Of a DNA stretch of 64,000 bases, positions 1 to 60,202 are shown in pieces (the stretch's first letter is position 1; each line of letters starts with the position of its first letter). The notes beneath the pieces are model-generated. The model did not search any database. It saw only the letters and a program-made list of their open reading frames with translations, and was not told the DNA's origin. The DNA comes from an uncultured Clostridia bacterium (GTDB lineage: Bacteria > Bacillota > Clostridia > Christensenellales > CAG-917). A program made the position numbers and the translations under genes. The stretch is from NCBI GenBank assembly GCA_944372795.1, contig CALWAF010000004.1, positions 1,165 through 65,164 of the forward strand. The letters run 5' to 3'.

Positions 1-3000
1 TCGTCACGCTGTCAGGAATGGCGACGGAGGTCAAGCTGCTGCAACCATTGAAGGCAAAATCACCTATGCTCGTCACGCCGTCCCCAATAGTGACGGAGGT
101 CAAACTTCTGCAATTCCAAAAGGCATAATCGCCTATGCTCGTCACGCTGTCAGGAATGGTGACGGAGGTCAAACTTCTGCAACCCTCGAAGGCACGATTC
201 CCTATGCTCTCTCCGCTCGTCAATACAGCCGTTTGCAAACTGTCCTGCGGGATATAATCGATCGCAAGCGTCGGCATTGTCGCGGAAGTTATGTTGCTGC
301 ATCCTTCGAAAGCTCCCTGCCCTATGCTCGTCACGCTGTCAGGAATGGTGATCGAGGTCAAGCCGCTGCAACTCCTGAAAGCACCATACTCTATGCTCGT
401 CACGCTGTCAGGGATGGTAACAGAGGCCAAACTGCTGCAACCATCGAAGGCATAGTTCCCTATGCTCGTCACGTTATCAGGAATGATTACGGAGGTCAAG
501 CTACTGCAGCCGGAGAAGGTACTATACCCTATGCTCGTCACGCTGTCAGGGATGGTGACGGAGATCAGGCTGCTGCAACCCGAAAAAGCAGAAGAGCCTA
601 TGCTAGTCACGCTGTCAGGAATGGTGACGGAGATCAGGCTGCTGCAACCGGAGAAGGTACTACCCTCTATGCTCGTCACGCCGTTCCCGATGGTGACGGA
701 GGTCAAACCGCTGCAACCGGAGAAAGCACCGATTCCTATGCTCGCCACGCCATTCGGAATGGTGATGGAGGTCAGTCCGATGCAATCACGGAAGGCGTAA
801 TCCTCTATGTCGGTTACACTGTCTGGGATGGAGATAGATGTCAAGCTGCTGCAACCATAAAAAGCACGATTCCCTATGCTCTCTCCACTCGTCAATACAA
901 CCGTTTGCAAACTGTCTTGCGGAACGGCATCAATAGCAATAGTCGGCATTGTTGCGGAAGTTATGTTGATGCAACCATCGAAGGCATAGTTCCCCATGCT
1001 CGTCACGCCGTTCCCGATGGTGACGGAGGTCAAGCCGCTGCAACCATAGAAGGCATATTCCCCTATGCTCGTCACGCTGTCAGGAATCACAAGATCGGTC
1101 ACCAACTTGCCATTTAGGTACAAATCATGCGCATGGTATAGCGGGTTGGAAGCAGAGTCGCCAAAGTCTATCCCGCACCATGTGGCGATGTTTGTTATGT
1201 AGACCGCTGTCAATCCGCCGCAATCAAGGAAGGCATAACTCCCTATGCTCGTCACGCTGTCAGGAATGGTGACGGAGGCCAAACTGCTGCAACCATCGAA
1301 GGCATAGTTCCCTATGCTCGTCACGCTATCAGGAATGGTGACGAAGATCAAACTACTGCAGCCGGAGAAGGCACTATACCCTATGCTCGTCACGCCGTTC
1401 CCGATGATGACGGAGGTCAAGCCGCTGCAACCATAGAAAGCCGAATCCCCTATGATCGTCACGCCGTCCCCTATGGTGACGGAGGTCAAGCCGCTGCAAC
1501 CATAAAAAGCACGATTCCCTATACTCTCTCCGCTCGTCAACACAACCGTTTGCAAACTTTCTTGCGGGATGTAATCAATTGCAATGGTCGGCATTGTTGC
1601 GGAAGTTATGTTGATGCAACCCTCGAAGGCATAAATCCCTATGCTCGTCACTCCCTCCCCTATGGTGACGGAGGTCAAACTGCTGCAACCGTAGAAGGCC
1701 CAATCCCCTATGATCGTCACGCTATCGGGGATGGTGACGGAGGTCAGACTGTCGCAATAATAAAAGGCATGATCATCTATGCTCGTCCCTCCCGTAATGA
1801 CCACCTCTTGCAGCGACACCGGAATAGCATTAAGTTGATCATTATAACGCGAGACCCCGAAGATATACCCGAAGTGCGTATAGCTCGTCCCATCCTTTGT
1901 CAAACCGACAAAAGGCAATGTTATGCTTTCAAGCGAGCTACAATTCTCAAAGGCACCAAATCCTATACTCGTCACGCTGTCGGGGATGGTGGCGGAGGTC
2001 AACCCGCTGCAACCGGAGAAGGCATACCGACCTATGCTTGTCACGCTGTCAGGGATCACGAGATCGGTCACCAACTCGCCATTAAGATATAGGTTATGCG
2101 CATAGTAAAGCGGGTTGGAAGAAGAGTCGGCAAACTCTATCCCGCACCATGCGGCGATGTCTGTGATGTAGACCGCTGTCAATCCGCTGCAATCGGAGAA
2201 GGCATAATAATCTATGCTCGTCACGCTGTTCGGGATGGTGACGGAGGCCAAATCGTCGCAACCATCGAAGGCAGAATAGCCTATGCTCGTCACGCCGTCC
2301 CCAATGTTGACGAAGGTCAAGCTGCTGCAATACCAGAAGGCACGATCCCCTATGCTCGTCACGCCGTCAGGGATGGTGACGGAGGTCAGACTGCTGCAGC
2401 CGGAGAAGGCATAACCTCCTATGCTCGTCACCCCGTTCGGAATCACAAGATCCGTCACCAACTCTCCATTCAAATACAGGTTGTGGGCGTAGTAAAGCGG
2501 GTTGGAAGCAGAGCCGCCAAACCCTATTCCGCACCATGCAGCGATGTCTGTGATGTAGACCGCCGTCAAGCTGCTGCACTCCGAGAAGGCATTTCCTCCT
2601 ATGCTCGTCACGCTGTCAGGGATGGTGACGGAGGTCAAACTGCTGCAACCACTGAATGCATAATCATCTATGCTCGCCCCTCCTGTGATGACGACTTCTT
2701 TCAACGAAGCGGGAACATAGTCTGCATTGGAACTAGAACTCGAAGCGCCGAAGATATGCCCGAAGTGCGTGTCTTCCGTTCCATCATTTGTGGCGCCGAC
2801 AAAAGGCAATGTTATGCTTTCAAGCGAACTGCAATTCTGAACGGCATACTGTCCTATGCTAGTCACGCTGTCAGGAATGGTGATCGAGGTCAAGCCGCTG
2901 CAACCATAGAAGGCAGACCCTCCTATATTCGTCACGCCGTCCGGGATGGTGATCGAGGTCAAACTGCTGCAACCCGAAAAAGCAGAAGAGCCTATGTTAG

Positions 3001-5998
3001 TCACGCTGTCAGGAATGGTGACGGAGGTCAGGCTGCTGCAATTGCAGAAAGCCACATCCCCTATGCTCGTCACGCTGTCCGGGATGGTGACGGAGGTCAA
3101 ACTGCTGCAACCATAGAAGGCACGATTCCCTATGCTCTCTCCACTCGTCAATACAACCGTTTGCAAACTGTCTTGCGGGATTGCATCAATTGCAATGGTC
3201 GGCATTGTTGCGGAAGTTATGTTGATACATCCTTCGAAGGCAGAAGACCTTATGCGCGTCACGCTGTCGGGAATGGTGATGGAGGTCAGGCCGATGCAAT
3301 CACGGAAGGCGTAATCCTCTATGTCGGTTACACTGTCCGGGATGGAGATAGATGTAAGAGCACTGCGCCCGTCGAAGGCGGAATACCCTATGCTTGTCAC
3401 ACCGTGCGGGATGGTAATATCCCCTGCAACAGCAGCGGGGATGAAGATCAATTCCGTCTTCGCTTTGTTGTATAACACTCCGTCCACGCTCGCGTAGGCG
3501 GCATTCTTTGCATCGACCTTGATCGATGTCAATCCGGTGCAACCGGAGAAGGCGTCGCTCTCTATGTTTGTCACGCCCTCACCAATGTTCACGGAAGTCA
3601 AGCCGGTGCAATCCTCGAAGGCATAATCTCCAATCGTCCCTCCCGTGATGGTGACTTCTTTCAAGGAAGCGGGAACATAGTCGTCATTGTAACTAGAACT
3701 CGAAGCACCGAAGATATACCCGAAGTGTGTATAGCTCGTCCCATCCTTTGTCAAACCGACAAAAGGCAATGTTATGCTTTCAAGCGAACTGCAATTCTGG
3801 AAGGCATACTGCCCTATGCTCGTCACGCTGTCAGGAATGGTGACGGAGGTCATGCCGGTGCAGCCAGAGAAAGCACCCCGCGCTATGATAGTCACGCCGT
3901 TCCCAATAGTGACAGAACTCAAACCGATGCAGTCCTTAAATACATATTCCTCTATGATTGTCACGCTGTCGGGGATGGTGATTGACGTCAGTCCGCTGCA
4001 ACCATTAAAGGCATACCAACCTATGAACGTTACGTCGTTCGGGATGGTGATCGCTGCCAATTCGCTACGGCCCTCGAATTCATAAGTACCTATGCGCGTC
4101 ACTCCTTCAGGGATGACCACATGACCGCTGACCTTCAAGGGAACATACTCTATTTGATTGTTGCTGTACAAAACCCCGCTTTGAGAATAATAGCCCGGGT
4201 TATCTTCCGACACCGTTATGCGCTCCAACATCTCACAATCGGAAAATGCCGTGTCGGCAATATCCGTCACATATTCGGGGATATAAAGCTCCGTGACCGT
4301 GGTGTCTGTAACGCCCGTGATGTGGCAAACGGAGTCGGTGGCGGTAAAGATATATCCCGCCATCTCATCCTTCACCGTCCATTTCGCCGTAAGTTCCACG
4401 CCGTCTACGGGCACGGTGAATGTGTATTCGAGATCCGTCGTGCACAAGGTGTCGCCTTCGTACCAGCCGACGAAATCATAGCCGAGAGGCGAAACCGCCT
4501 GCACCGTCACCTCGGAGAGAACATCATATTCTCCCGTCCCGATGACCTTTGCGCCGTCCGTATCGGCGGTCAGGAGCACATTATAGCGGTCGATAGTGTA
4601 CTTGGCGTACACCGTGGTGTCATTGAGCAGCGTCCATCCTGACGTACTCTGTCCGTTTGCGTCCGTGATGCGGGTGCCGTCCGCAAGGAACCACCCGTCG
4701 AATTGATAATATTCCCGCACTGCCACAGGGAAGGTGAAGTCCGCGTCATACGTGACGGTGACCGTATTTGTCGACACACTGCCTTCCTCGGCATCCAATG
4801 TCACCGTATATTCGTTGGGCGTACAGATCGGATAAACGTGAGCGTCTTGTTTCACCATTCCGGTGCTGTTATATTCCTCGTCATCCACGTACCATCCGGT
4901 GAGTGTGTATCCGTCAAAAGCCCCATGTGCATATCCTTGTTGCCGATAGAACTCGGCCCATTGCTCTATTGTTTCGAGCTTCTGCCCGTCGGAGTAAAGG
5001 GGACCGAAGTACGGAGCATCAAACTGTATTGAGAAAAACACGTCCCCATACGGATCGTGCGCATACACTATGACGGGATATTGCTTGAACAGATTTACCG
5101 TATATACCCGTGCCGCCGTTCCGTCAGGGAAATATGTTTGCAGATAAAAGAGGTTGTCTCCGTCGGCAAAAGCTGCTTCCGACAGCGGCAGTTCCAACGA
5201 TATCTCTTCCGAACATGCCGCATCCTTGAACAGCCTCATCTCCACTCCCTCTTCAATTTGACAAATGCTGCCAAAATCTATGACGCTCGGCAGATCGGGG
5301 TGGTCAAATTCGACAAAAAGCTGAAGGGTCAGCTTCTTAACGTCCAGTTCGGCTGATTCGCGCATCCAGCCGGGAGAATACACAGCCTCTATCTCACCAG
5401 TAAGCCAGCGCGCGTAAAGGTCGAGAGAGGATGCGACCATGTTGTTGTCGAAATCCCATTTTTCGGTAAAGTTCGGATCGGTGTACCAACCATCCAAATA
5501 CTTTCCCGATTGCGGTTCGACCTCGGGAGGCACGACCAGATCGCCCGCATCAAGCTGCGTCTGACTGTCATAGATGTTGCCGTCGACCCTGAAAGTCACC
5601 GTAAACTTCGGCTCGCCGTCCTCTCCGCCGAATTGATCCATATAGAACGTGAGCGTGTTTCCTTCGATCTCCAACGTGACAGCCCCGGCGCCCGCATCGT
5701 ATCTTGCGATGCACGTCTGCGTGTCTCCGGAATAGAAGATCATCTCATAGGGCGACGTGATCTCATATGTACCGCTTATGCCTAGGCTCATCTCCCACGT
5801 CAGATCGGGATTGAGCTGCAACCACACGGGAGAAGACGCCGCCGGCATCACAGCATAATAACGTCCGTATGTGATGACGTCTTCATCGCCGGGCTCGCCA
5901 AGATCATCGGGGTCGTCTCCGTTGCAGGCGGCGAGGATGCCGACCGCCAGAACGAAGCAACACAACAGTGCCATCAACAAGAACAACTTCTTTTTCAT
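1..5998 (-). CDS. Giant cell-surface lipoprotein with N-terminal Listeria-Bacteroides (Flg_new-like) repeats and many BspA-type leucine-rich repeats (LRR_5). The 5' end is complete; the 3' end runs off the window (>=1,999 aa).
   Basis: A minus-strand ATG at 5996-5998 is preceded by GGAGGG. The translation starts MKKKLFLLMALLCCFVLAVGILAAC-NGDD, with a lipobox LAAC. The reverse complement of the ~69-nt DNA repeat reads ..AF.GCSSLTSVTIPDSVTSIG.. The GGT codon at 44-46 is in the same phase as the ATG. No complete minus ORF ending here appears in the track, which omits edge-truncated ORFs. The N-terminal part has GWYTD../FDGWF../FVGWYEGD motifs. Confidence 0.85.
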   Translation of the reverse strand, partial: MKKKLFLLMALLCCFVLAVGILAACNGDDPDDLGEPGDEDVITYGRYYAVMPAASSPVWLQLNPDLTWEMSLGISGTYEITSPYEMIFYSGDTQTCIARYDAGAGAVTLEIEGNTLTFYMDQFGGEDGEPKFTVTFRVDGNIYDSQTQLDAGDLVVPPEVEPQSGKYLDGWYTDPNFTEKWDFDNNMVASSLDLYARWLTGEIEAVYSPGWMRESAELDVKKLTLQLFVEFDHPDLPSVIDFGSICQIEEGVEMRLFKDAACSEEISLELPLSEAAFADGDNLFYLQTYFPDGTAARVYTVNLFKQYPVIVYAHDPYGDVFFSIQFDAPYFGPLYSDGQKLETIEQWAEFYRQQGYAHGAFDGYTLTGWYVDDEEYNSTGMVKQDAHVYPICTPNEYTVTLDAEEGSVSTNTVTVTYDADFTFPVAVREYYQFDGWFLADGTRITDANGQSTSGWTLLNDTTVYAKYTIDRYNVLLTADTDGAKVIGTGEYDVLSEVTVQAVSPLGYDFVGWYEGDTLCTTDLEYTFTVPVDGVELTAKWTVKDEMAGYIFTATDSVCHITGVTDTTVTELYIPEYVTDIADTAFSDCEMLERITVSEDNPGYYSQSGVLYSNNQIEYVPLKVSGHVVIPEGVTRIGTYEFEGRSELAAITIPNDVTFIGWYAFNGCSGLTSITIPDSVTIIEEYVFKDCIGLSSVTIGNGVTIIARGAFSGCTGMTSVTIPDSVTSIGQYAFQNCSSLESITLPFVGLTKDGTSYTHFGYIFGASSSSYNDDYVPASLKEVTITGGTIGDYAFEDCTGLTSVNIGEGVTNIESDAFSGCTGLTSIKVDAKNAAYASVDGVLYNKAKTELIFIPAAVAGDITIPHGVTSIGYSAFDGRSALTSISIPDSVTDIEDYAFRDCIGLTSITIPDSVTRIRSSAFEGCINITSATMPTIAIDAIPQDSLQTVVLTSGESIGNRAFYGCSSLTSVTIPDSVTSIGDVAFCNCSSLTSVTIPDSVTNIGSSAFSGCSSLTSITIPDGVTNIGGSAFYGCSGLTSITIPDSVTSIGQYAVQNCSSLESITLPFVGATNDGTEDTHFGHIFGASSSSSNADYVPASLKEVVITGGASIDDYAFSGCSSLTSVTIPDSVTSIGGNAFSECSSLTAVYITDIAAWCGIGFGGSASNPLYYAHNLYLNGELVTDLVIPNGVTSIGGYAFSGCSSLTSVTIPDGVTSIGDRAFWYCSSLTFVNIGDGVTSIGYSAFDGCDDLASVTIPNSVTSIDYYAFSDCSGLTAVYITDIAAWCGIEFADSSSNPLYYAHNLYLNGELVTDLVIPDSVTSIGRYAFSGCSGLTSATIPDSVTSIGFGAFENCSSLESITLPFVGLTKDGTSYTHFGYIFGVSRYNDQLNAIPVSLQEVVITGGTSIDDHAFYYCDSLTSVTIPDSVTIIGDWAFYGCSSLTSVTIGEGVTSIGIYAFEGCINITSATMPTIAIDYIPQESLQTVVLTSGESIGNRAFYGCSGLTSVTIGDGVTIIGDSAFYGCSGLTSVIIGNGVTSIGYSAFSGCSSLIFVTIPDSVTSIGNYAFDGCSSLASVTIPDSVTSIGSYAFLDCGGLTAVYITNIATWCGIDFGDSASNPLYHAHDLYLNGKLVTDLVIPDSVTSIGEYAFYGCSGLTSVTIGNGVTSMGNYAFDGCINITSATMPTIAIDAVPQDSLQTVVLTSGESIGNRAFYGCSSLTSISIPDSVTDIEDYAFRDCIGLTSITIPNGVASIGIGAFSGCSGLTSVTIGNGVTSIEGSTFSGCSSLISVTIPDSVTSIGSSAFSGCSSLISVTIPDSVTSIGYSTFSGCSSLTSVIIPDNVTSIGNYAFDGCSSLASVTIPDSVTSIEYGAFRSCSGLTSITIPDSVTSIGQGAFEGCSNITSATMPTLAIDYIPQDSLQTAVLTSGESIGNRAFEGCRSLTSVTIPDSVTSIGDYAFWNCRSLTSVTIGDGVTSIGDFAFNGCSSLTSVAIPDSVT

Positions 5999-6068
5999 GC
6001 TGCCCTCCAAACACGGGAAGCCCGCTTATAATATGATCGGATTTTTTAGGAATCTAATCAATATAAGA

Positions 6069-6139: not shown

Positions 6140-6263
6140 CTGACGCTCTCATTTGGATGAGATGCGCAAAAAAGCCCCGTTTTCGGCGAGGCGCGTACTA
6201 AACCGTACGTAACGAGCCGAAAACGGGGCTTTGACAAAGCAGGTCGCCAAATGAGAGCGTCAG
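6140..6263. repeat. Family T nested palindromic element, copy T1
   Basis: CTGACGCTCTCATTTGG ... CCAAATGAGAGCGTCAG forms the outer stem. The middle stem is GCCCCGTTTTCGGC/GCCGAAAACGGGGC and the core is CGTAC-TAAACC-GTACG. Bases 6260-6262 are the TGA stop of the TetR gene. Confidence 0.9.
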
Positions 6264-6853
6264 GCGCAGTATTCACATAGCGTCGTCTCCGCCAAAATAC
6301 TCAACTGCTGCTTGATGTCGTCTTGGGTGTAGTTGGGCTCTTCGAGCAGCCACCATTTGATGAGGGAGATGATGCCGCCGGCGAAGAATTCGGCGAGGAT
6401 GTCGGCGGGGATCTTGCCGGCTCCTTCTTTGGGCTTGGCTTTGGTGAGCCTGCCGACGATGTTGTGGGTGAGGATCTCGTGCACCTTGTCGAAGACGAGG
6501 GCGCTGTCCGCCTTGAGGATGATGGTCTTCAGGCGTTTGCGGTATTGCGCGAGGAAGTTGATGCCGAGGGACATGACCTCGTTGTAGTAAGTGATGAGGT
6601 CGCTCTCGCCGTGTGCCTGTTTGACCTGCTCGTGCAAGCCGTACATGACGTCGCTGATGCACTTGTCGAGCAGCTGATACTTATCCTCGAAATGGGTGTA
6701 GAAAGTGCCGCGATTGATGAGAGCGCGGTCGCATATGTCGATGACCGTGATGGAACCGAACGACTTCTCGTCGAGAAGCTCGTAGAACGCGTCGACGATC
6801 GCTTTCTGTGTGCGCTGGATGCGAAGATCCGTCTTGTTTGAATTCTTTGCCAT
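6260..6853 (-). CDS. TetR/AcrR family transcriptional regulator (197 aa)
   Basis: An internal ATG at 6853 of the 305-aa track ORF gives MAKNSNKTDLRIQRTQKAIVDAFYELLDEKSFGSITVIDICDRALINRGTFYTHFEDKY, a typical TetR N-terminal HTH. Confidence 0.9.
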   Translation of the reverse strand: MAKNSNKTDLRIQRTQKAIVDAFYELLDEKSFGSITVIDICDRALINRGTFYTHFEDKYQLLDKCISDVMYGLHEQVKQAHGESDLITYYNEVMSLGINFLAQYRKRLKTIILKADSALVFDKVHEILTHNIVGRLTKAKPKEGAGKIPADILAEFFAGGIISLIKWWLLEEPNYTQDDIKQQLSILAETTLCEYCA

Positions 6854-11997: not shown

Positions 11998-12328
11998 AAG
12001 ACAGCCGTTCGGGTTTCCCCTCTCGCCCGCCCGTTTTGTGCAAGCCGTTTAATGTTTATGAAATGTGCTTAATTTTAATTTAAGTTTCAAAACCCACTGT
12101 TTAGTAGCATTCTGGCGCGAAAATTATATTTTTATGAAATTTTTTACAAGAAAAATTTTTATTTTATTTTTATTTAATAATGCCGTTTTACATTATAGAC
12201 AAAGAGAGCGATCTCTTCCCCACATAACTTGCACTTCGTCCGCTACACAGTGCAAGCCCCAAAAGCGAACTTCCCCATTCTATGCTGATTTCTTAAGCCC
12301 TTATAATACTCCGGCGGACGACCAAGAG

Positions 12329-12356
12329 CACACGCAAACGCGTGTGTTTTTGATTT
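12329..12356 (+). terminator. Orphan intrinsic-terminator-like hairpin
   Basis: CACACGC-aaac-GCGTGTG followed by TTTTTGATTT. It lies 330 nt downstream of the HK stop, just before the repeat island. Confidence 0.45.
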
Positions 12357-12380
12357 GCCGCGCCATGCGCGGAGATGCTT

Positions 12381-12758
12381 CGTGCTCAAACGTGAGAATA
12401 GGTGCAGTCCCCCGACATGGGAGTATTGTTCCCCCTCCTCCCCTTCGGGACTCCTCCCCCACTCGGAATAGAGTTCGCTCCTCCTAAAATGCGGGACTTA
12501 CTTTTTCATAAAGGCGCGAACCGCGCCTTTATGAAAACACCTCTTGAAAAAAGTTTGAGTCTCGCACTCACTTATTCAAGCAGCGAACAGTACTCACTGA
12601 ACATCGCTCGCGGGGAGAGGAGGGCGACTCGACGCGCACGAAGCCCGTGTCTACTTAACGCCTCATCTAGCTTGCGAGGTCGCATTCGCGCCGCGACTTG
12701 CAAGAGCGGGCACAAACGCCCGCTGTGCAAGTTTGGGTGAGCGGCGCGTAATTCCGTC
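12381..12758 (-). repeat. Family X interspersed repeat, copy X_A (~378 bp, carries a 27-bp hairpin insertion at 12507-12533)
   Basis: It is near-identical (as reverse complement) to 20821-21168 and 21407-21750, and collinear with 48204-48547. Confidence 0.85.
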
Positions 12759-12828
12759 TTTGAAATAGAATCGGCGTGCTCGGGGACGCTCCGAATAAGT
12801 GCACGTTTGACAGCTTCACAAAAACCCC

Positions 12829-13275
12829 GAGCGTGACGTCGCTTGACATGATGTTATCTCGTTCGGAGTGGAGCCGCTCACCAAGCGCTCACAGGGCGAA
12901 GCCCTCTTGAGCGCCGCGCCTCCTGCCCCACGCGAAAAATCGGAGATTTTTCCCGCGGGGACCCCGTATGAGATCGCAGAGTGCCGCACCGAAGGTATAG
13001 CGATTGTTACACGAAGTGTCAATCGCGTTGGGCTGACGAAACGTGCGCCGGCAATGCGCCACTCTTTTCGCGAAGCGGGCGCATTGCAAGCGGCATAACA
13101 TGGCGGCGCCGTGGAGGCGCCGTCCTCGGACGCCCTCGTGCCCGAGCGCCGAAGGTGTCCCCCGAAATGGTGGGTCCCCTTTTAAGGGGGAACGATTTCG
13201 GGGGAAACCCGACAGGAAGGGGGTAAGCAATACTCCCATGTCAGGGACGTGCACCCTATTTCACGTTTGAGCACG
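12829..13275 (+). repeat. Family Y interspersed repeat, copy Y_A (contains one H-type hairpin unit at 12926-12966)
   Basis: It is the reverse complement of 47441-47801 apart from an internal replacement. The segment 13043-13215 is nearly identical, with 3 substitutions. Confidence 0.85.
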
Positions 13276-13304
13276 ACGTTTCCTCGGCTCCTACTCCCCG
13301 CCCG

Positions 13305-13428
13305 CTGACGCTCTCATTTGGATGCAGAACGCGAAAGCACCCCTTTTCAGGCGAGGCGCGTACTAAACCGTACGTAACGAGCCTGAAAAGAGGTGCTGAC
13401 AAAGTTATGCGCCAAATGAGAGCGTCAG
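13305..13428. repeat. Family T nested palindromic element, copy T2
   Basis: It has the same termini as T1. The middle stem is GCACCCCTTTTCAGGC/GCCTGAAAAGAGGTGC. Bases 13425-13427 are the TGA stop of the CofE-like gene. Confidence 0.9.
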
Positions 13429-14609
13429 TCGGCGTAGTTGGTGAAATAGTTTTGAATATAAACTATAGGCGTCCCCTTGTCACCCGAGCCGGAGGTGAGA
13501 TCCGCGAGGGAACCGAGGAGGTCGGTGAGACGACGGGGGGTGGTGCCTTGGGATGCCTGCGAGGCGAAGAGGGAGGACGGCTTGGCTTTGATCATGTCTT
13601 GGATGGCGCGCTTGGCGTCCTCGCCGCGGAGATCGCCGATGGCGTTGTCGGCAAGATATTTGAGCTTGAGCTCGTTGGGAGTGCCGACGAGCCCGGAGGT
13701 GTAAGCGGGAGAGACGACGGGGTCGGCGAGCTCCCAGATCTTGCCGACGGGGTCCTTGAAGGCGCCGTCGCCGTAGACCATGACTTCCACCCTCTTGCCC
13801 GTCTTTTCGAGCAGAATGGACTGCACTCTTTCCACGAACTTGTCGCAGTCGCGGGGGAAGAGTTTGACGCTGTCGTCGGTGGCGAGATTGGAGCCGAGGA
13901 TGCCGTAGTCGGGGTTATAGCCGCTGCCATCGACGGGAGCGTTCATTATCTCGTGCATGGAGATGACCTTCTCCGCGCCCGCGGCAAGCAGAAGACGCTT
14001 GGTGCGGAAGCGGGTGTGGATGTCCGCGTTGATGACGACCTTGGTGTACTTCAGGATCTCCTGCGGACGGTTGGCGAGGATTATCTCGGTGCCCTCGCCC
14101 GCCATCTCCTTGTAAAGGGCGATATAGTCCATGCCCGTGAAGGGGTGCTTGACCTCTCCGAAGGTGTCGTAGACCTGTTTCTCGGTGAAGACGTCGGTGT
14201 AAGGATTGACGCCGTGCTCGTCGAGGGCGTCGATGTCCATAAGATGATTGCCCACCTCGTCGGAAGGATAGCTCAACATGATGACGAGCTTGTCCACGCC
14301 CTTGGAGATGCCTTTGAGCAGCATGGAGAAGCGGTTGCGGGAAAGGATGGGGAAGATGAGTCCCACCGTGCCGCCGCCCGTCTTCGCGCGGACGTCCTTT
14401 GCGATCTGATCCACCGTGGCGTAGTTGCCCTGCGCGCGCGCCACGACTGCCTCCGTCACGGCGAGCACGTCGCGGTCTTGGATGTCGAAACCGGTGCGGG
14501 AGTCGAACGCCGCCGCGAGCAGACTGTCCGCGACTATGGCGGCGAGATCATCGCCCTTCTTGATGATGGGAGCCTTGATACCTCTTGAGATCGTGCCGAC
14601 TGTAGCCAT
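13425..14609 (-). CDS. F420-0:gamma-glutamyl ligase (CofE)-family protein, function unknown in this context
   Basis: A 394-aa ORF starts at an ATG with a GGAGG RBS. The N-terminus MATVGTISRGIKAPIIKKGDDLAAIV and the motifs GILGSNLA and YGDGAFKDP resemble the PF01996 family as I recall it. The family assignment is from memory only. Confidence 0.55.
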   Translation of the reverse strand: MATVGTISRGIKAPIIKKGDDLAAIVADSLLAAAFDSRTGFDIQDRDVLAVTEAVVARAQGNYATVDQIAKDVRAKTGGGTVGLIFPILSRNRFSMLLKGISKGVDKLVIMLSYPSDEVGNHLMDIDALDEHGVNPYTDVFTEKQVYDTFGEVKHPFTGMDYIALYKEMAGEGTEIILANRPQEILKYTKVVINADIHTRFRTKRLLLAAGAEKVISMHEIMNAPVDGSGYNPDYGILGSNLATDDSVKLFPRDCDKFVERVQSILLEKTGKRVEVMVYGDGAFKDPVGKIWELADPVVSPAYTSGLVGTPNELKLKYLADNAIGDLRGEDAKRAIQDMIKAKPSSLFASQASQGTTPRRLTDLLGSLADLTSGSGDKGTPIVYIQNYFTNYAD

Positions 14610-20703: not shown

Positions 20704-20715
20704 AACCGTCTTACA

Positions 20716-20748
20716 AAAGAGCCGCTCACACGAGCGGCTCTTTTTTTA
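20716..20748 (+). terminator. Intrinsic terminator after upp
   Basis: AAAGAGCCGCTC-acac-GAGCGGCTCTTT followed by a T-run. Confidence 0.85.
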
Positions 20749-20820
20749 TAAAGACAATAGGGCGATGAACAAATGATTATCGGATAGAGTGCGCCCAACT
20801 ACAATTAAACCCGGTTCGAA

Positions 20821-21168
20821 GACGGAATCACGCGCCGCTCACCCAAACTTGCACAGCGGGCGTTTGCGCCCGCTCTTGCAAGTCGCGGCGCGCCCCGCGA
20901 CCTCGCAAGCCGGACGGATAATTAAGTAGACACGGGCGCCGTGCGCGTCGAGTCGCCTTCCTCTCCCCGCGAGCGACGTTCAGTTTATACTGTTCGCCGC
21001 TCGATTATCTCTATGCGAGATTCAAACTTTGTCAAAAAGGACGAAAAGTATATCCCGCATTTTAGGAGGACTGAACTCTTCCCGAGTGGGGGAGGAAAGC
21101 CCGAAGGGAAGGTGGGGGAACAATACTCCCATGTCAGGGACGTGCACCCTATCCCACCCCCGAGCACG
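20821..21168 (+). repeat. Family X interspersed repeat, copy X_B1
   Basis: It aligns end to end with 21407-21750, and as reverse complement with 12381-12758 and 48204-48547. Confidence 0.85.
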
Positions 21169-21210
21169 CCGTACCCTCCGAGCGGGTGTTGCATGAATTC
21201 GCGTATAACT

Positions 21211-21349
21211 CCGAAACAAACGGGGACGGGGTAAAAATGTTCATTCTCGGACGCGTTCGCCCGAGTTGAACATTTGCGCCCCCATGCCCCGCGAGCGGGG
21301 ACCCCGGCTTGACCCCGTCCCCATTTGTTTCAATGCGTTCCTGTTTCGG
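21211..21349. repeat. Composite palindrome Z between the two tandem X copies
   Basis: The outer arms are CCGAAACAAACGGGGACGGGGT ... ACCCCGTCCCCATTTGTTT..CCTGTTTCGG. An inner hairpin is AAATGTTCATTCTCGG/CCGAGTTGAACATTT. Confidence 0.7.
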
Positions 21350-21406
21350 ATACGTTGACGAGCAGCTTGATAGGGCGCATTTGAACATGATGGAACCTCT
21401 TTCAAA

Positions 21407-21750
21407 GACGAAATCACGCGCCGCTCAGCCAAACTTGCACAGCGGGCATTTGCGCCCGCTCTTGCAAGTCGCGGCGCGCCCCGCGACCTCGCAAGCAAAA
21501 CGAAACATTAAGTAGACACGGGCGCAGTGCGCGCCGAGTCGCCTTCCTCTCCCCGCGAGCGATGTTCAGTGAGTACTGTTCGCCGCTTGATTATCTCTAT
21601 GCGAGATTCAAACTCTATCAAAAAGGACAAAAGTATATCCCGCATTTTAGGAGGACTGAACTCTTCCCGAGTGGGGGAGGAGTCCCGAAGGGGAGGAGGG
21701 GGAGCAACATTCCCCGCGAGACGCACACTCTATTCCACCCTCCGAGCACG
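21407..21750 (+). repeat. Family X interspersed repeat, copy X_B2
   Basis: It is a tandem second copy, more diverged at the G-rich end and with a small indel relative to X_B1. Confidence 0.85.
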
Positions 21751-21780
21751 ACGTTTTCTCGGCTCCTACTCCCCGTTAGA

Positions 21781-21903
21781 CTGACGCTCTCATTTAGATG
21801 CAGAACGCGAAAGCGCCTCTGTCGAGAGGCGGAGCGTACCTTTAGTACGTGAGCATCTACGACAGAGGCGCTGACAAAGTTATGCGCTAAATGACAGCGT
21901 CAG
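21781..21903. repeat. Family T nested palindromic element, copy T3 (most diverged)
   Basis: CTGACGCTCTCATTTAG ... CTAAATGACAGCGTCAG, with middle stem GCGCCTCTGTCG/CGACAGAGGCGC. Bases 21900-21902 are the TGA stop of the lipoprotein gene. Confidence 0.9.
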
Positions 21904-24206
21904 TCGAGGTCTTTCCAGAGAGACTCATACGCCTCCCTATTATAAACGATCGTCTCATAGTGCTGGACACCGAAGGCATTGACCTTCTCTTCGTAGAGGG
22001 CGGACTGCTTGCCGGTGAGAAGGGTCTCCTCGATCTGCTGACGGATGGTGACGCAATCCTCAAGGGTGGGGGCATACTCGACGATGTAATCGAGGGGGAG
22101 CTCCTTGCCGCTGCCGTTGTCGGCAAAGGTGAGCGCCGTTTCGTTGCCCTCTGCGTCGATGCCGACGAGATTGTCGTCGAGGGGCACGCAGGTGGCGACA
22201 AGGATGAAGATGCCGGCATACGCACCGCTGGTGGTGCCGGACTCGATGAAGTTGTCGCCGAAGATGTAGAAGTTGCCCTCGGTGGCGCCTGCGCCGTCCG
22301 CGCGCTCATAGGACGCGGTGCCGTTTTCGATGAGTGCGCGCGCCTGTTTGGTGAAGGACTCGATATAGCCGGACTCTTCTCCCTCGGGAGTGATCATATA
22401 GCCGAGTCCGCCGTTGTTGGAATCGGAGGAAGTGCCGCCGGAGTCGTCACCCACGAGATAGAGCCACTCGGTGGCGACTTCGCGCATCCAATAGACGCCG
22501 AGCACGGGAGACATGCCGTCCGCGACAGCCTGTTTCACCGCGGAGAAGGAGGCATAGATCTGCTCCACTATGCCCGTCCGTTCCCCTCCGTTCGTGAAGG
22601 CGGGGACGGTGCCCGGGAGATACGCCATGGCGGGACATGCGGTGACGCCGTATTCGATGCTCGCCACCTTGGTGTCCTTATCGTAGACGAACTTCACGAT
22701 ATTGTTCCAATCCGCGCCCTCGTTCACCTCGTCCACGCACTCGTGGTTGGGACAGGTCATGGGATCGCAATCGGAGCCCGCCTCGCAGGAGTGACGGTCG
22801 CAGATGTAATCGGGGTCGTAATCGGGGTTGCTGACATTGACCTCGATGGCTTTGAGCAGTTTGTCGCGCTCCTTGGTGATGGTCGACTTGTCGCCGCTGT
22901 AGACGCCGTCTTCCACCATCTCGGTGAGCTTCGCAAGGTCGTCGTCGGGGAGCTGCAGCAGGATGTTGAGGACGAAGCCGTAGCCCTCATATTCGTGATA
23001 GTAAGAGGTCGCGAGGGCGTCGGTGAGCGCGGTCTCGTAAGAGGTGCGGTTGCCGCCGTAGGCCTCGATGTTCGCCTCCACCATGGAGTCGAAACGAGCC
23101 TCGATCTCCGCCTGACTGACGGTGCTCTGCTCGCCTATCTTGCGCTCGAGGCGGGTGATGAGCAGAGTCTTCATCTCGTTGTCGAGATAATATTGATAAC
23201 TCGTGCGCAGCTCGTCGAAGTCGTCCGCGACGTCTTCCACCGCGTCATCGAGATATTCCTTGAGATACTCTTCCCTGACCGCTTCGGAATAGGTGGAAAG
23301 GCTGTCAAGCTCCGCCTCGCCGCTCATGATGAGCGCGCGGTAACCCTCGGTGAGCAGACCGGAGTCGTCGAGTGCGCGGGGAGCGAGCGGATCCACTTCG
23401 CCGTCGGGATCGTAGTCCGCATCGGGGTCTTCCTCCTCCGCCTCACGCACGGGACGGGGCTCGAGATAGGGCTCCCACTTGGCGTAAAGAGTGATGCTCT
23501 TCGTGCCCTCTTCGAGGGTGACGGGCTTTGAGAAATCGAAGGCTTCGGTGCAATCTTTGTCGGTGTACCAGCCGTAGAAGGTGTAACCTTCGCGGGTGGG
23601 ATCGTCGGGTTCGTAAGCCACGGTGCCGTTCTTTATGCGCTGGCGTTCCACCGCGCTGCCCTTGCCGGAATCGAAACGGACGGTGATGGCGTCGGTGCCG
23701 CTGTATTCCTCATATTCGCCGCTGTCGGAACTGCCGCCCGTGGAGGGCTTGTTGGCGCTGATGAGCGTGCCAATGGCGGTGTCGATGGCGGAGAGGATGT
23801 CCTCATTGACGTTCTCGATGGCGCGGTTGAGCTCCGCAGACGAGAGCAGATCCTCCACCTTCACGTCCACGGCGGACGCGCCCGGGTCTTCCATCTTCAC
23901 AAGCTCGTCCTTGGCAAAGAGCACGAGAAGCTCGCGCTGGGCGAGAGACTGCAGCAAATAGTCCGCCGCCTGCTGATAGGTCATGCCGTAGTAGGCATTG
24001 TAGATGTAGGCGTAAGAGTTGAAACTGATCGCCAGCTCGAACTTGCGGATATCGGCGGTCTGCCCCGCATAAGAGACGGAGGCGACCACCTGATTGGCGT
24101 CGCGGTCTTCGTTGCGCGTGATGATGGCGTCGCAGCCGACGAGGGCTCCGATGCACACCGAAAGCGCGATGATGAGGACCAACAGAAGAGCAATTCTTTT
24201 TTTCAT
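21900..24206 (-). CDS. Lipoprotein (768 aa) with a SurA/PrsA-N-terminal-like chaperone region and a Listeria-Bacteroides repeat
   Basis: The ATG at 24206 gives MKKRIALLLVLIIALSVCIGALVGC, a lipobox. The segment ITVRFDSGKGS..GYTFYGWYTDKDCTEAFDF..LYAKW is a Flg_new-type repeat. The position downstream of mfd matches where prsA-like genes sit in Clostridia. No PPIase signature was recognised. Confidence 0.6.
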   Translation of the reverse strand: MKKRIALLLVLIIALSVCIGALVGCDAIITRNEDRDANQVVASVSYAGQTADIRKFELAISFNSYAYIYNAYYGMTYQQAADYLLQSLAQRELLVLFAKDELVKMEDPGASAVDVKVEDLLSSAELNRAIENVNEDILSAIDTAIGTLISANKPSTGGSSDSGEYEEYSGTDAITVRFDSGKGSAVERQRIKNGTVAYEPDDPTREGYTFYGWYTDKDCTEAFDFSKPVTLEEGTKSITLYAKWEPYLEPRPVREAEEEDPDADYDPDGEVDPLAPRALDDSGLLTEGYRALIMSGEAELDSLSTYSEAVREEYLKEYLDDAVEDVADDFDELRTSYQYYLDNEMKTLLITRLERKIGEQSTVSQAEIEARFDSMVEANIEAYGGNRTSYETALTDALATSYYHEYEGYGFVLNILLQLPDDDLAKLTEMVEDGVYSGDKSTITKERDKLLKAIEVNVSNPDYDPDYICDRHSCEAGSDCDPMTCPNHECVDEVNEGADWNNIVKFVYDKDTKVASIEYGVTACPAMAYLPGTVPAFTNGGERTGIVEQIYASFSAVKQAVADGMSPVLGVYWMREVATEWLYLVGDDSGGTSSDSNNGGLGYMITPEGEESGYIESFTKQARALIENGTASYERADGAGATEGNFYIFGDNFIESGTTSGAYAGIFILVATCVPLDDNLVGIDAEGNETALTFADNGSGKELPLDYIVEYAPTLEDCVTIRQQIEETLLTGKQSALYEEKVNAFGVQHYETIVYNREAYESLWKDLD

Positions 24207-47328: not shown

Positions 47329-47341
47329 TGCTGAGTTACGC

Positions 47342-47376
47342 AAACGCCGCCCTTTTGGGCGGCGTTTTCTTTTTTC
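47342..47376 (+). terminator. Intrinsic terminator after nifJ
   Basis: AAACGCCGCCC-tttt-GGGCGGCGTTT followed by TCTTTTTT. Confidence 0.85.
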
Positions 47377-47440
47377 GCGCATCATTTTTTGCCGTTCCGC
47401 AGTAAGAAAATTGTACGCTACGGGAAAACTTGCTCTTCAT

Positions 47441-47801
47441 CGTACTCGAAAGTGAGAACGGGGCGTACGTCCCCTGACATGGGAGTGTTGATTACCCCCT
47501 TCCTGCGGGTTTCCCCCGAAATCGTTCCCCCTTAAAAGGGGACCCACCATTTCGGGGGACACCTTCGGCACTCGGGCACGAGGGCGTCCGAGGACGGCGC
47601 CTCCATGGCGCCGCCATGTTATGCCGCTTGCAATGCGCCCGCTTCGCGAAGAGAGTGGCGCATTGCCGGCGCACGTTTCGTCAGCCCTCGGCACTCATAC
47701 GGTCGCCGCCGACTTTCAAGAGGCGGCAAGCCGCCTGTGAAAGTTTGGCTGGGCGGCTCCACTCCGAAAGAGATAACATCGTGTCAAGCGACGTCACGCT
47801 C
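47441..47801 (-). repeat. Family Y interspersed repeat, copy Y_C
   Basis: It is the reverse complement of 12829-13275 (Y_A). It begins with the TIR-like end CGTACTCGAAAGTGAGAACGGGGCGTACGTCCCCTGACATGGGAG. Confidence 0.85.
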
Positions 47802-48203
47802 AAAGTTTTCGTTAAACCGTCTTCGAAAGGGTGTTCGGCGTGTTCCAGCACGCTTCGAACGAGGGCGCGTCATAAATGTTCCCCGCCCTATGACGGCACC
47901 GCGGGGAAAAATCGTGGGTTGCTTCCCGCACTTTGTTTTGTCAAGGAGTTGCGCCGAAAAAATTTGCCGGTGGGGGTATTATACCCCCACTCCCCCACGT
48001 TGTAGCGGGACGTTAATAACATTTTGCCGAGCGTGATGTAAAGCTAATGCCGGCCGCCTGCTTAAGGCCGCAAAATTTTTCGCGCCCTTGACAACGACGT
48101 TTCGTTAAAATAACAACACGCGCGGAGCAGTCCCCTGCTCCGCGCCTTAATTGTTGCGCTCTTTGTAGCTCGGGGACGTTTGACACCCGCTCGGAGGTTG
48201 CGG

Positions 48204-48547
48204 CGTGTTCGGGGGGTGAGAATTAAGTGTACGTCTCGCGGGGAGTATTGTTCCCCCTCCTTCCCTTCGGGCTTTCCTCCCCCACTCGTGAAGAGTGCAG
48301 TCCTCCTAAAATGCGGGATATACTTTTCGTCCTTTTTGATAGAGTTTGAATCTCGCATAGAGATAATCGAGCGGCGAACAGTATAAACTGAACATCGCTC
48401 GCGGGGAGAGGAAGGCGACTCGACGCGCACTACGCCCGTGTCTACTTAATTATCCGTCTAGCTTGCGAGGTCGCATTTCGCGCCGCAGCGTTCAAGCGGC
48501 GGCTACGCCGCCTGTGAACGCTTGGGTGAGCGGCGCGTAAGACCGTC
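48204..48547 (-). repeat. Family X interspersed repeat, copy X_C
   Basis: It is collinear with X_A and the reverse complement of X_B1 and X_B2. The bulged hairpin module is replaced by a covarying variant. Confidence 0.85.
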
Positions 48548-48633
48548 TCCAAAACAGGATTCGTCGTGTTCGATCATACTCCGAACAAGAAAACGTCGTG
48601 TCGGGGGACGTCACGCACTAACGTCCCGTCGTC

Positions 48634-48757
48634 CTGACGCTCTCATTTGGATGCAGAACGCGAAAGCACCCCTTTTCAGGCGAGGCGCGTACTAAACCGT
48701 ACGTAACGAGCCTGAAAAGGGGTGCTGACAAAGTTATGCGCCAAATGAGAGCGTCAG
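48634..48757. repeat. Family T nested palindromic element, copy T4
   Basis: It is almost identical to T2. Bases 48754-48756 are the TGA stop of the EIIC-like gene. Confidence 0.9.
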
Positions 48758-50100
48758 GAGAGTTTTTGGTCGCCGAAGCGTATCCACCCCCACCTCCTCA
48801 TCACCTCCGAAATGATGAGACACAGGACGGCAGGGATGACGACGCAGCAGAGGACGATGCCGAGGGCGAGTTTCCATTGGGGAAGACCGACTTCGACGGA
48901 GGCGTCGATGGCGCCGAAGATGCCGACGAGACCGGAGGTGCCCATGCCGCCGCCGACGGCGTTGCAACGCAAGCCGAAGACGCAGGTGGAAAGGGGTCCC
49001 ACGACTACGCTGGCGAGGATGGGCGGGAGCATGATCTGCGGATGACGCATGAGATTGGGGATCTGCAACATGCTGGTGCCTATACCCTGCGCGATGAGCC
49101 CGCCCCACTTGTTTTCGCGAAAGGACTGCACGGCGAAACCGACCATATGCGCGGAGCACCCCACCATGGACGCGCCGCCCGCAAGAAGTATGGCATCGTA
49201 GGTGGCGAAGTCCACCTCGCCAGCGGCGTACGCAGTGATGACGGGGGTGGCGACGGCAAGCCAGATGGCTGCCGAAGAAGTGGGCAGGGTGAGAAGTATG
49301 CCCATGACGACGGCGATGATGATGCCCATGACGGCGGGGGTCGCCGCCGTGGCGAGAGCGACGCCCTCGCCGATGAGATCGACAAGTTTGATGAAGGGCC
49401 ACGCCGCCCACACCGCGAACAGACAGACGACGAACATCACGAGGGGGACGACGACGATGTCCACCTTGGTCTTGCCCGCGACGAGCCTGCCGAGTTCCAC
49501 CGCGATGACGGAAACGACATAGGCGCCGATGGGGTTGCCGGGAGCGGCAGGCGCCACGCCCGAGAGAACGTCGTTGACGGCAAGCGTGGTGAAATCGCCG
49601 AGGAAACCGTCCGTGACGGCATTGGCGAACGCTCCCACGAAACCCGCCACCGCTGCGGTGAACATGACGAGCTTGGGCGCCTTCAACGCATGGGCGATCC
49701 CTATGCCGATGCCCGCGCCCATGAGCATCTTGGCAAGATTCGCGACGGCGGTGACCCCGCCGCCCACGATGAGAGCGGCATCGGTGCCCGCAGACGTGAT
49801 CCACGCACCGATCTGCCCGAGGATGGTGCCCGCGATGAGGGTGCAGAACAGCCCCTGCGACATGCCCGTAAACGCGTCTATAAAATATCTGACGAAACCC
49901 TTTTTGAGAAGATAGAAAATATATTTCCACGAAAACTCGGGTTTTATCTCGTCGTTTTTATTGTTTGAAGTGTCGGTTGTGTCGGCAACGTCGGTCGCGC
50001 TTTCTTTCTCGCCGTCAACCTCGCCTGCGGGGAGCTCCCCTTGCGGAAGGCGTCTGTACTCGGTGTCGTCCGCAAGCATCTTGTCAAATTCGGCGCTCAT
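48754..50100 (-). CDS. PTS EIIC-like polytopic membrane protein (PTS_EIIC_2-type), no EIIA/EIIB partner in the window
   Basis: The product is 448 aa, with an acidic N-terminal ~55 aa followed by Gly-rich hydrophobic repeats (GMSQGLFCTLIAGTILGQIG.., GIGIGIAHAL.., GGGMGTSGLVGIFGA). The family assignment is from memory and of moderate confidence. Confidence 0.55.
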   Translation of the reverse strand: MSAEFDKMLADDTEYRRLPQGELPAGEVDGEKESATDVADTTDTSNNKNDEIKPEFSWKYIFYLLKKGFVRYFIDAFTGMSQGLFCTLIAGTILGQIGAWITSAGTDAALIVGGGVTAVANLAKMLMGAGIGIGIAHALKAPKLVMFTAAVAGFVGAFANAVTDGFLGDFTTLAVNDVLSGVAPAAPGNPIGAYVVSVIAVELGRLVAGKTKVDIVVVPLVMFVVCLFAVWAAWPFIKLVDLIGEGVALATAATPAVMGIIIAVVMGILLTLPTSSAAIWLAVATPVITAYAAGEVDFATYDAILLAGGASMVGCSAHMVGFAVQSFRENKWGGLIAQGIGTSMLQIPNLMRHPQIMLPPILASVVVGPLSTCVFGLRCNAVGGGMGTSGLVGIFGAIDASVEVGLPQWKLALGIVLCCVVIPAVLCLIISEVMRRWGWIRFGDQKLS

Positions 50101-59906: not shown

Positions 59907-60202
59907 CCCCGGCCGAAAATTAAAAATTTTCGTCCGGGGGCCCCGAGTTATACCCCACGAAAAAAATCGAAGATTTTTCCCGCGGTGACCCCGAGTGATG
60001 CCCCACCGAAAATTCTTTCGGCGGGGGCCCCGAGTTATACCCCACGAGAAAAATCGGAGATTTTTCCCGCGGGGACCCCGAGTGATGCCCCACCGAAAAT
60101 TCTTTCGGCGGGGACCCCGAGTTATACCCCACGAGAAAAATCGGAGATTTTTCCCGCGGGGACCCCGGTTTTGCCACACCGAAAATCGGAATTTTTCGCC
60201 GC
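59907..60202. repeat. Tandem array (87-bp period, about 3.4 units) of alternating H-type hairpins
   Basis: CCCCGAGTTATACCCCACG recurs at 59941, 60028 and 60115. The units alternate CCCCACGAGAAAAATC-gga-GATTTTTCCCGCGGGG and CCCCACCGAAA-attc-TTTCGGCGGGG. A solo unit lies at 12926-12966. Confidence 0.9.

Follow-up and report, generated by a model that had tools for sequence, protein, structure and literature searches.

Hairpin copies and architecture

The DNA described here is a 64-kb stretch from an uncultured Clostridia bacterium (contig CALWAF010000004.1), hereafter called the window. It contains three non-coding islands of 1.2–1.4 kb, each between convergent genes, which hold six copies of a bulged hairpin module. 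The islands are:

11998..13424, island 1, between genes for a histidine kinase (+) and an F420-ligase-like protein (-)
20704..21899, island 2, between upp (+) and a gene for a Flg_new surface protein (-)
47329..48753, island 3, between genes for PFOR (+) and PTS EIIC (-)

Each hairpin is the 3' end of a longer structured non-coding repeat, either X (about 350–400 nt) or Y (about 380 nt), a position that the preliminary description of this DNA had missed. Named after the elements that they end, the hairpins are:

12686..12752, + strand, hairpin of X_A (80.3 bits)
12866..12924, - strand, hairpin of Y_A (58.5 bits)
20827..20893, - strand, hairpin of X_B1, stems identical to those of X_A (81.4 bits)
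21413..21479, - strand, hairpin of X_B2, stems identical to those of X_A, tail TTGGCTGA (83 bits)
47701..47764, + strand, hairpin of Y_C (67.5 bits)
48478..48541, + strand, hairpin of X_C (81.7 bits)

The scores are those of a covariance model trained on 33 distinct copies and run over the window with the filters off. It gives six matches of 58.5–83 bits and a runner-up at only 19 bits; six is therefore the complete hairpin count in the window, and all were found at the positions and on the strands first reported. The tail motif occurs six times in the window (0.95 expected); five of these are module tails and the sixth, at 18563, is a chance match with one mismatch. The pattern of the whole module occurs three times, with 0.00 expected. 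Folded as single strands, the hairpins are far more stable than shuffled sequences (z from -3.8 to -5.6), on either strand. Three lie on the plus and three on the minus strand, in a region of uniform cumulative skew.

The hairpin is an imperfect palindrome of about 60 nt (55–65 nt) with three helices, P0, P1 and P2. What had been described as a flanking motif, the conserved tail, is one strand of the third helix: its GCGGC(GC) pairs with (GC)GCCGC located 5' of the stem, forming P0, and this pairing leaves a G opposite TTGGNTGR as an asymmetric internal loop. In X_A, the helices are GCGCCGC/GCGGCGC (P0), ACTTGCA/TGCAAGT (P1) and AGCGGGC/GCCCGCT (P2), the unpaired parts being the AG and G bulges and the internal loop TTGGGTGA. 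X_C has GCGTTCA/TGAACGC as P1 and (C)GGCGGC/GCCGCC(T) as P2. In Y_C, P0 is GCCGCC/GGCGGC, P1 is ACTTTCA/TGAAAGT and P2 is AGGCGGC/GCCGCCT. In Y_A, P1 is GCGCTCA/TGAGCGC and P2 is AGGGC/GCCCT, and a W-type insertion (W being one of the palindromic repeats of the islands) displaces the 5' strand of P0. The unpaired bases (AG, G and the TTGGNTGR loop) and the CA/TG shoulders are fixed, and the stem sequence is free. The invariance first ascribed to TCA/TGA shoulders thus has to be narrowed to CA/TG, as the X_A form has GCA/TGC. The stems, said to be always complementary, are nearly so, the CGGCGGC form opening P2 with a C.T mismatch. The conserved tail is present, albeit in Y_A without the variable base (TTGG-TGAGCGGC).

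Further copies are found outside the window, at least 85 in seven species represented by metagenome-assembled genomes (MAGs), as well as in human-gut metagenomes. A pattern scan covering one genome per species gave the following copy numbers, all of them lower bounds:

SI.A15 bin145, at least 27 copies
BRZ_V bin16, at least 16 copies
HGM11451, at least 12 copies
Candidatus (Ca.) Limadaptatus stercoripullorum, at least 10 copies
BRZ_ET bin92, at least 6 copies
Ca. L. stercorigallinarum, at least 3 copies
BRZ_MP bin75, at least 1 copy

Among the matches listed, real ones come only from related uncultured gut Clostridia MAGs, including Ca. Limadaptatus. A scan of metagenomes added 44 real copies, largely on long human-gut contigs. 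Many copies are situated at contig ends. In viral contigs, eight matches to the pattern are due to chance, none being recovered by the model, and the C-rich core of X has no match; comparing X and Y with plasmid and phage sequences by blastn found nothing either, and an origin from these was rejected. No Rfam family matches anywhere in the window at gathering thresholds, and searching island 1 with an E-value threshold returned only chance-level matches, far below gathering scores; as first supposed, the module is no Rfam entry. Neither tRNA nor tmRNA is present in the window.

Classified by their flanking genes, 15 copies are convergent, 19 tandem and four divergent. The copies prefer intergenic regions at gene 3' ends and avoid promoters. 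In 51 of 68 cases, the gene that follows is a convergent one; this apparent orientation bias results mostly from the preference for convergent and tandem 3' regions.

Covariation was analysed on 33 distinct hairpins from at least seven related Clostridia MAGs. Pairing is found in 93.7% of the cells of this alignment, versus 80.5% in shuffles and 24–52% with slid partners, and ten of the 22 pairs have changes on both sides. Four of the seven P1 pairs covary, with zero unpaired cells; P2 also has four covarying pairs. The covariation of both helices, noticed at first in the window copies, thus holds on a larger alignment, the check that the preliminary description had itself proposed. The hairpin structure is selected or maintained. 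Wobble pairs are scarce (4 of 715 cells).

The P1 stems belong to four discrete types. Rare single-step intermediates are one U.G form (on two contigs), one C.A form and one A.T form, and their existence means that point mutation also adds to stem change. Metagenome copies L139, L142 and L178 carry such intermediates, GTGTTCA/TGAACGC (U.G) and GCGTTCA/TGAACAC (C.A). P1 and P2 types assort semi-independently, and both are common to X and Y. Among pairs of X elements with bodies 90–95% identical, the P1 types differ in 13 of 30. X_B1 and X_C, for instance, are 92% identical along a core arm of 263 nt that reaches as far as the 5' side of the stem, yet their hairpins differ in three P1 pairs and throughout P2. 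As different stems are carried by near-identical bodies, hairpin cores are passed from one element to another as units. The two arms lie no more than 45 nt apart in all, so that a short conversion or replacement tract takes both along. Independent compensatory events are few, about four in P1 and a similar number in P2, and much of the complementarity first reported reflects a small number of cores copied as units, which had gone unnoticed. X_A, X_B1 and X_B2 have the same stems because they are copies of one repeat of about 350 nt (mutual identity 78–89%). The six window copies therefore amount to about four independent observations, and the case rests on the wider alignment. For the method, the lesson is that copying of whole palindromes between repeats inflates apparent covariation.

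The X and Y elements

The elements ended by the six hairpins are:

12401..12799, + strand, X_A, full X element
12809..13276, - strand, Y_A, Y element split by a W-containing insert at 12896-13029
20807..21189, - strand, X_B1, full X element
21383..21754, - strand, X_B2, full X element
47440..47821, + strand, Y_C, full Y element with a highly paired body
48183..48589, + strand, X_C, full X element with a hairpin core different from that of X_B1

X and Y have a common 5' leader, ACGTCCCTGACATGGGAGTATTG..CCCCC, and a common 3' hairpin, with unlike bodies between them, as in families of non-autonomous elements. In some other strains, the leader also starts V, another of the island repeats. X_A consists of the 5' leader GACATGGGAGT, a C-rich core, a G-rich partner strand and the terminal hairpin. 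X_A is interrupted at 12507-12533 by a perfect palindrome of 27 nt, CATAAAGGCGCGAACCGCGCCTTTATG. Only X_A-type copies have this insertion; it is present in strain L096 as well. The body of X_C is 86–92% identical to that of X_B1.

In every copy with enough upstream sequence, the leader is found 232–418 nt upstream of the hairpin, the exceptions being truncated, 'solo' or insertion-interrupted copies. Copies seemingly lacking the X core upstream are X elements interrupted or internally deleted by W-type insertions, which also explain the 'solo' hairpins beside W arrays in L072, L132 and L148. A coding role for X and Y was rejected: in open reading frames (ORFs) through them the G+C content at third codon positions is low, 0.55–0.67 where real genes reach about 0.8, and the indels between copies do not come in multiples of three. 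None of the approximately 100 X and Y copies examined is a long autonomous version.

The body of X is itself structured. It has 83 predicted pairs, with 93% of cells paired compared to 37–51% with slid partners, and 16 pairs show changes on both sides. A long-range helix of 17 pairs joins strands about 120 nt apart, CCUCCCCC(GUG)/(CAC)GGGNGGAGG; the GUG/CAC of one clade is replaced by ACG/CGU in Ca. Limadaptatus. The C-rich block and the unpaired loops are near-invariant across genera; some blocks (for example CCCCCTCCTTCCCTTCGGGCTTTCCTCCCCC), the C-rich one included, are about 99% conserved. Some helices show series of G-C, G.U and A-U pairs on the plus strand, as at columns 222-245 (13 GC, 10 GU and 3 AU). 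A closing helix between the 5' and 3' ends of X (GUCUCGCG/CGCG..AGAC, GGUGAGU/ACUCAC) was considered and rejected, the partners showing no covariation.

These properties of the X body, together with the U.G intermediate of P1, would suit structured non-coding RNAs, or modules of longer read-through transcripts. The hairpin would then be a 3'-terminal stem-loop that binds a protein or blocks exonucleases, and multi-copy mobility would be secondary, or else the RNA would be needed for mobility, as are omega RNAs, bridge RNAs and group II introns. We regard this as possible but rather unlikely. In X, no conserved -10 or -35 sequence is found at a fixed place and no terminator-like T run follows the hairpin; promoter and terminator scans of the islands gave no excess. 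Copies show no conserved orientation with respect to the genes beside them, and at one locus even strains differ. The consensus folds are equally good on the two strands (-159 versus -162 kcal/mol for X, -213 versus -226 kcal/mol for Y). Wobble pairs make up 1–3% of the pairs predicted on both strands of X and Y, and in these both-strand pairs A.C exceeds G.U on the plus strand, by 36 to 13 in X and 16 to 8 in Y; as a way of finding the folded strand, counting G.U against A.C gave an ambiguous outcome. The lack of an Rfam match also speaks against cellular RNA genes, for which dozens of copies per genome would be unusual.

By Pfam and NCBIfam, the proteins encoded in the window are housekeeping proteins only. 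This agrees with what had first been stated, that no enzyme of the expected kind is encoded there: no transposase, recombinase, TnpB or reverse transcriptase is detectable with these databases, and no Y1 HUH gene is present. For associated proteins elsewhere, every ORF that reaches 120 aa at 70 loci was compared by clustering rather than with hidden Markov models. Within about 4 kb of these roughly 70 copies no protein family recurs, all clusters being housekeeping families, and neither tnpA nor tnpB was seen.

Island turnover and the role of the hairpin

The islands are mosaics of X, Y and other palindromic repeats, named R, V, W and Z. R is a 32-nt unit with a short hairpin and the loop YCGAAWAAG; it bounds X and Y on both sides and also occurs in tandem. 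The units flanking X_A are:

12371..12399, + strand, R unit 5' of X_A
12766..12806, + strand, R unit 3' of X_A, loop CCGAATAAG, also present at the empty site in other strains

Among contigs that encode an identical 394-aa F420-ligase-like protein, the island 1 region varies from 525 to 1580 nt, being 1428 nt in the window. The shortest alleles contain only Z, one R unit and a unique AT-rich segment, with X and Y absent; others have one or two X elements of different subtypes, truncated or hairpin-deleted copies, and insertions of W or V. Contigs assembled with Hifiasm and with Canu carry the same islands, and this agreement of long-read assemblies means that the islands are not artefacts of (short-read) assembly. 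The region between upp and the Flg_new gene is 856–1432 nt long in other strains, which have X or Y in different numbers. In L107, L111, L113 and L114, V lies here on the minus strand and X or Y on the plus strand, and in the window the order is X (-), V (+), X (-); the whole array is inverted relative to these four strains, with the same flanking genes. The proposal that the module sits in moving or recombining DNA is borne out by these comparisons, since islands at the same genes vary in the presence, type, number and orientation of modules.

Two kinds of breakpoint can be followed at the nucleotide level. At island 1, the empty site (one junction read) joins CGTGAAAT to ATAGAATCGG, and in strain L098 the 5' and 3' R units abut directly, with no X between them. 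The filled site in the window has GTGAGAAT joined to AGGTGCAG, followed by X_A, and then GTCTTTGAA joined to ATAGAATCGG. From this comparison, the junction falls in the GAAWWAG motif that ends every module. Hairpin-less copies, such as that of L096 (GCGCCGCGGCGTTC joined to CGGCGCG), have their breakpoints at the direct repeat AGCGGCG flanking the palindrome, which is a classic slippage signature of a DNA hairpin.

We favour, tentatively and at somewhat less than an even chance, the reading that mobile, recombinogenic DNA modules carry the hairpin as a site for structure-specific recognition, in a new system resembling REP, BIME and NIME. X and Y are non-coding, non-autonomous repeats, each terminated by the three-helix hairpin, which with R, V, W and Z assemble mosaic islands in intergenic regions at gene 3' ends; these islands turn over fast, modules being gained, lost, exchanged and inverted between strains. 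The fixed unpaired bases, combined with stems that are free in sequence and nearly always Watson-Crick paired, would form a site recognised by a structure-specific protein. Such a site may be read on DNA that is single-stranded, or extruded as a hairpin, during replication or recombination. The gene of the enzyme that reads it would lie elsewhere in the genome. A HUH/Y1 (RAYT-like) enzyme is one candidate, and some other recombinase or nuclease with structure specificity is a second; alternatively, host recombination may act at the shared junction motifs. We infer DNA rather than RNA as the level of reading from the turnover, the slippage deletions, the scarce wobble pairs, the equal folds of the two strands, the unconserved orientation and the lack of a fixed promoter or terminator. 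The suggestion that this is a recombinase site is consistent with the conserved site, its invariant unpaired bases and the mobility of the DNA; the families it named, IS200/IS605, REP and attC, do not fit.

Several observations count against a recognition site in mobile DNA. No enzyme was found, the window containing housekeeping genes only; clustering revealed no protein family recurring near the other copies; and the copies examined include no long autonomous version. The hairpin strand is unbiased with respect to local GC skew, itself no more than a proxy for replication direction, with 42 copies on the G-rich and 39 on the C-rich side. Single-strand mechanisms of the IS200/IS605 and REP types are usually strand-biased. 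The GAAWWAG motif belongs to the repeats themselves, so that target duplication is indistinguishable from homologous or site-specific exchange. Lastly, the compensatory changes between clades in the long-range helix, the G-C/G.U/A-U series and the nearly invariant blocks make the X body look more like functional RNA than junk DNA.

The same junctions and deletions would also be expected from passive or host-domesticated extragenic palindromes that have no dedicated enzyme and are spread and shuffled by homologous recombination, slippage and gene conversion. They might simply be tolerated at gene 3' ends, or serve there as mRNA 3'-end stabilisers, as insulators that separate convergent genes, or as sites bound by nucleoid or topoisomerase proteins, as proposed for E. 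coli REP and BIME. The location of all window islands between convergent genes, the strong enrichment in 3' intergenic regions elsewhere, the junctions in shared motifs, the deletions between direct repeats, the inversion of a whole array where inverted repeats are available, and the failure to find an enzyme are all in keeping with it. We nevertheless consider it unlikely: presence at many unrelated loci needs a copying mechanism, the invariant unpaired bases beside varying stems argue for specific recognition rather than a generic hairpin, and the precise hot spots of W reveal an active machinery for site-specific insertion in these genomes.

In another arrangement, also unlikely, X and Y would represent a novel class of non-autonomous mobile elements in which the body of about 350 nt acts as a functional folded RNA or single strand needed for its own copying, with the hairpin as docking site for the enzyme. 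This would be RNA- or structure-guided mobility lacking the usual neighbouring gene, reshuffling islands between strains of one gut species.

Comparison with known repeats

REP and BIME sequences, and REPINs mobilised by RAYT (TnpA-REP) transposases, have been described in E. coli and Pseudomonas (PMC3116915, PMC6006769). Like them, the present modules are imperfect palindromes outside genes that number tens to hundreds and are found where genes end or converge. They form mosaics with other short motifs and keep complementary stems though sequence families differ; a mobilising gene would likewise be expected as a single copy elsewhere. Their extragenic location, high copy number and position at gene 3' ends are typical of REP. 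A further hallmark of REP is a conserved 5' tetranucleotide foot, GT[AG]G, beside the palindrome (PMC6006769). Neither GTAG nor GTGG is present at either foot in 42 unique forms of the hairpin, whose 5' foot is (G/A)CGCGCCGCG or GGTCGCCGCG and whose 3' foot is GCGGCGCGT or GCGGCTCC. Close inverted doublets (less than 200 nt apart), the common REPIN arrangement of REP, occur once among about 80 copies, as X_A/Y_A with about 120 nt between them; the members of an inverted pair in L067 are separated by about 650 nt, and other multi-copy loci are co-oriented or far apart. The module also differs from REP in its 55–65 nt, its three helices and 7-8-nt asymmetric loop, its place at the end of elements of 350–400 nt and its Clostridia host, and in the lack of a RAYT in the window or among the genes near about 70 copies.

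NIMEs are Neisseria RS units bounded by dRS3 repeats (PMC1797815). With these, the islands share variable non-coding modules parted by a short conserved repeat, in intergenic regions that vary between strains via recombination. The bounding unit is in this case the 32-nt R hairpin with its CGAAWAAG loop, unlike the 20-bp dRS3; the sequences and the host are different, and the modules are much longer and internally structured. As descriptions, both BIME and NIME apply insofar as the islands are intergenic mosaics of several motifs with a composition that varies between strains.

The pneumococcal BOX repeats (boxA-boxB(n)-boxC) are modular intergenic repeats of about 100–300 nt. A Gram-positive host, a short unit in variable tandem number and a strong predicted secondary structure are common to both, but there is no sequence similarity, and BOX lacks a bulged terminal hairpin common to different bodies. 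In IS200/IS605 elements and their non-autonomous derivatives, the PATEs, an imperfect hairpin near the end likewise carries extrahelical bases and is recognised by its structure, and non-autonomous copies are again uniform in length. Elements of this family have similar subterminal hairpins on one strand at either end, and their full-length copies contain tnpA, tnpB or both. X and Y have one hairpin per element according to the model and a 5' leader that forms a different hairpin of 3-4 bp; moreover, a tnpA or tnpB gene was not seen, the strand is unbiased with GC skew, and no conserved target of 4-5 nt lies 5' of the element.

The likeness to attC sites is one of layout. Both are folded from a single strand and close each unit (350–400 nt for X and Y) at its 3' end. 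The outer helix is conserved, comparable to the R boxes, and an unpaired spacer separates it from an inner helix that varies and has extrahelical bases; the terminal structure varies too. X and Y could on this basis be cassettes with a folded recombination site and an integrase encoded elsewhere, but this is highly improbable. The outer helix is GCGCCGC/GCGGCGC, with no R'/R'' cores and no RYYYAAC or GTTRRRY core sites; both orientations occur within one island, at many scattered loci rather than in a single co-oriented array; no integrase is encoded in the window or near other copies; and the units are without genes, containing no ORF with a coding signature. The features tested that define REP, IS200/IS605 and attC are therefore lacking, contrary to the relationship first suggested. 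The conserved bases do not fit a K-turn, T-loop, group II domain V or oriT/dso nick site either, and these were rejected.

We conclude that the islands belong to the mosaic extragenic-palindrome kind. In behaviour they are nearest to REP/BIME with RAYTs, to NIMEs and to BOX, all of which are palindromes in many copies outside genes, arranged as mosaics that differ from strain to strain. What sets them apart is the hairpin with its three helices and fixed unpaired bases, the structured elements of 350–400 nt that it ends, and the host lineage. Neither X nor Y is catalogued, and both families covary strongly. Should an enzyme be found, the system would be a Gram-positive gut-commensal counterpart to REP/RAYT and NIME, with an unusually elaborate recognition structure and a structured cargo of 350–400 nt. 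Interest would be high if X and Y turned out to be functional RNAs on which their own mobility depends, or if a structure-specific enzyme of a new kind were involved. Assemblies of this lineage break at the islands. Since strains whose flanking genes are identical differ in them, the islands could be used as strain markers of high resolution.

Of the companion repeats, W is a mini-palindrome of about 40-45 nt, CCCCACCGAAAAATC..GATTTTTCGGCGGGGACCCCG. It inserts at the same hot spots in independent copies of X, Y and Z, and its presence varies between strains. The hot spots are the CCC/TTCGGG loop of the C-rich core (between CCC and TTCGGG), the 5' foot of the hairpin, and a site between GCTCGC and GGGGAG. 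W and its relatives look like the most active small mobile elements in these genomes. Besides its sites in the window, W is found in L103, L097, L072, L133, L139 and L168. V is a palindrome of about 170 nt, GAAACAAACGGGGACGGGG ... CCCCGTCCCCATTTGTTTC, between X_B1 and X_B2, and it recurs in other strains at both islands compared, sometimes after the X/Y leader. Z is an imperfect palindrome of about 124 nt, CTGACGCTCTCATTTGG ... CCAAATGAGAGCGTCAG, also common in related MAGs. Each of its four copies adjoins or overlaps a stop codon, always that of a gene on the minus strand (TetR-like, F420-ligase-like, Flg_new and PTS EIIC). Z may be a 3'-end hairpin placed close to stop codons, or else an insertion with target specificity. 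The positions are:

6140-6266, 13305-13431, 21781-21906 and 48634-48758, copies of Z
12926-12966, W inside Y_A
21195-21365, V
59922-60182, W, as three tandem units of 87 nt

The unique AT-rich segment of island 1 (12000-12368, about 40% GC), downstream of the histidine kinase gene, is 97–98% conserved in all strains, regardless of island content. It has a promoter-like site at 12143-12170 and a terminator-like hairpin with a T run at 12330-12355, and may be a small independent transcript. At the start of the window, the minus strand (2-6025) encodes a surface protein that exceeds 2000 aa and contains Flg_new domains and leucine-rich repeats of the BspA type; it extends beyond the window, and its repeat is the source of a 69-nt DNA periodicity over the first 4 kb.

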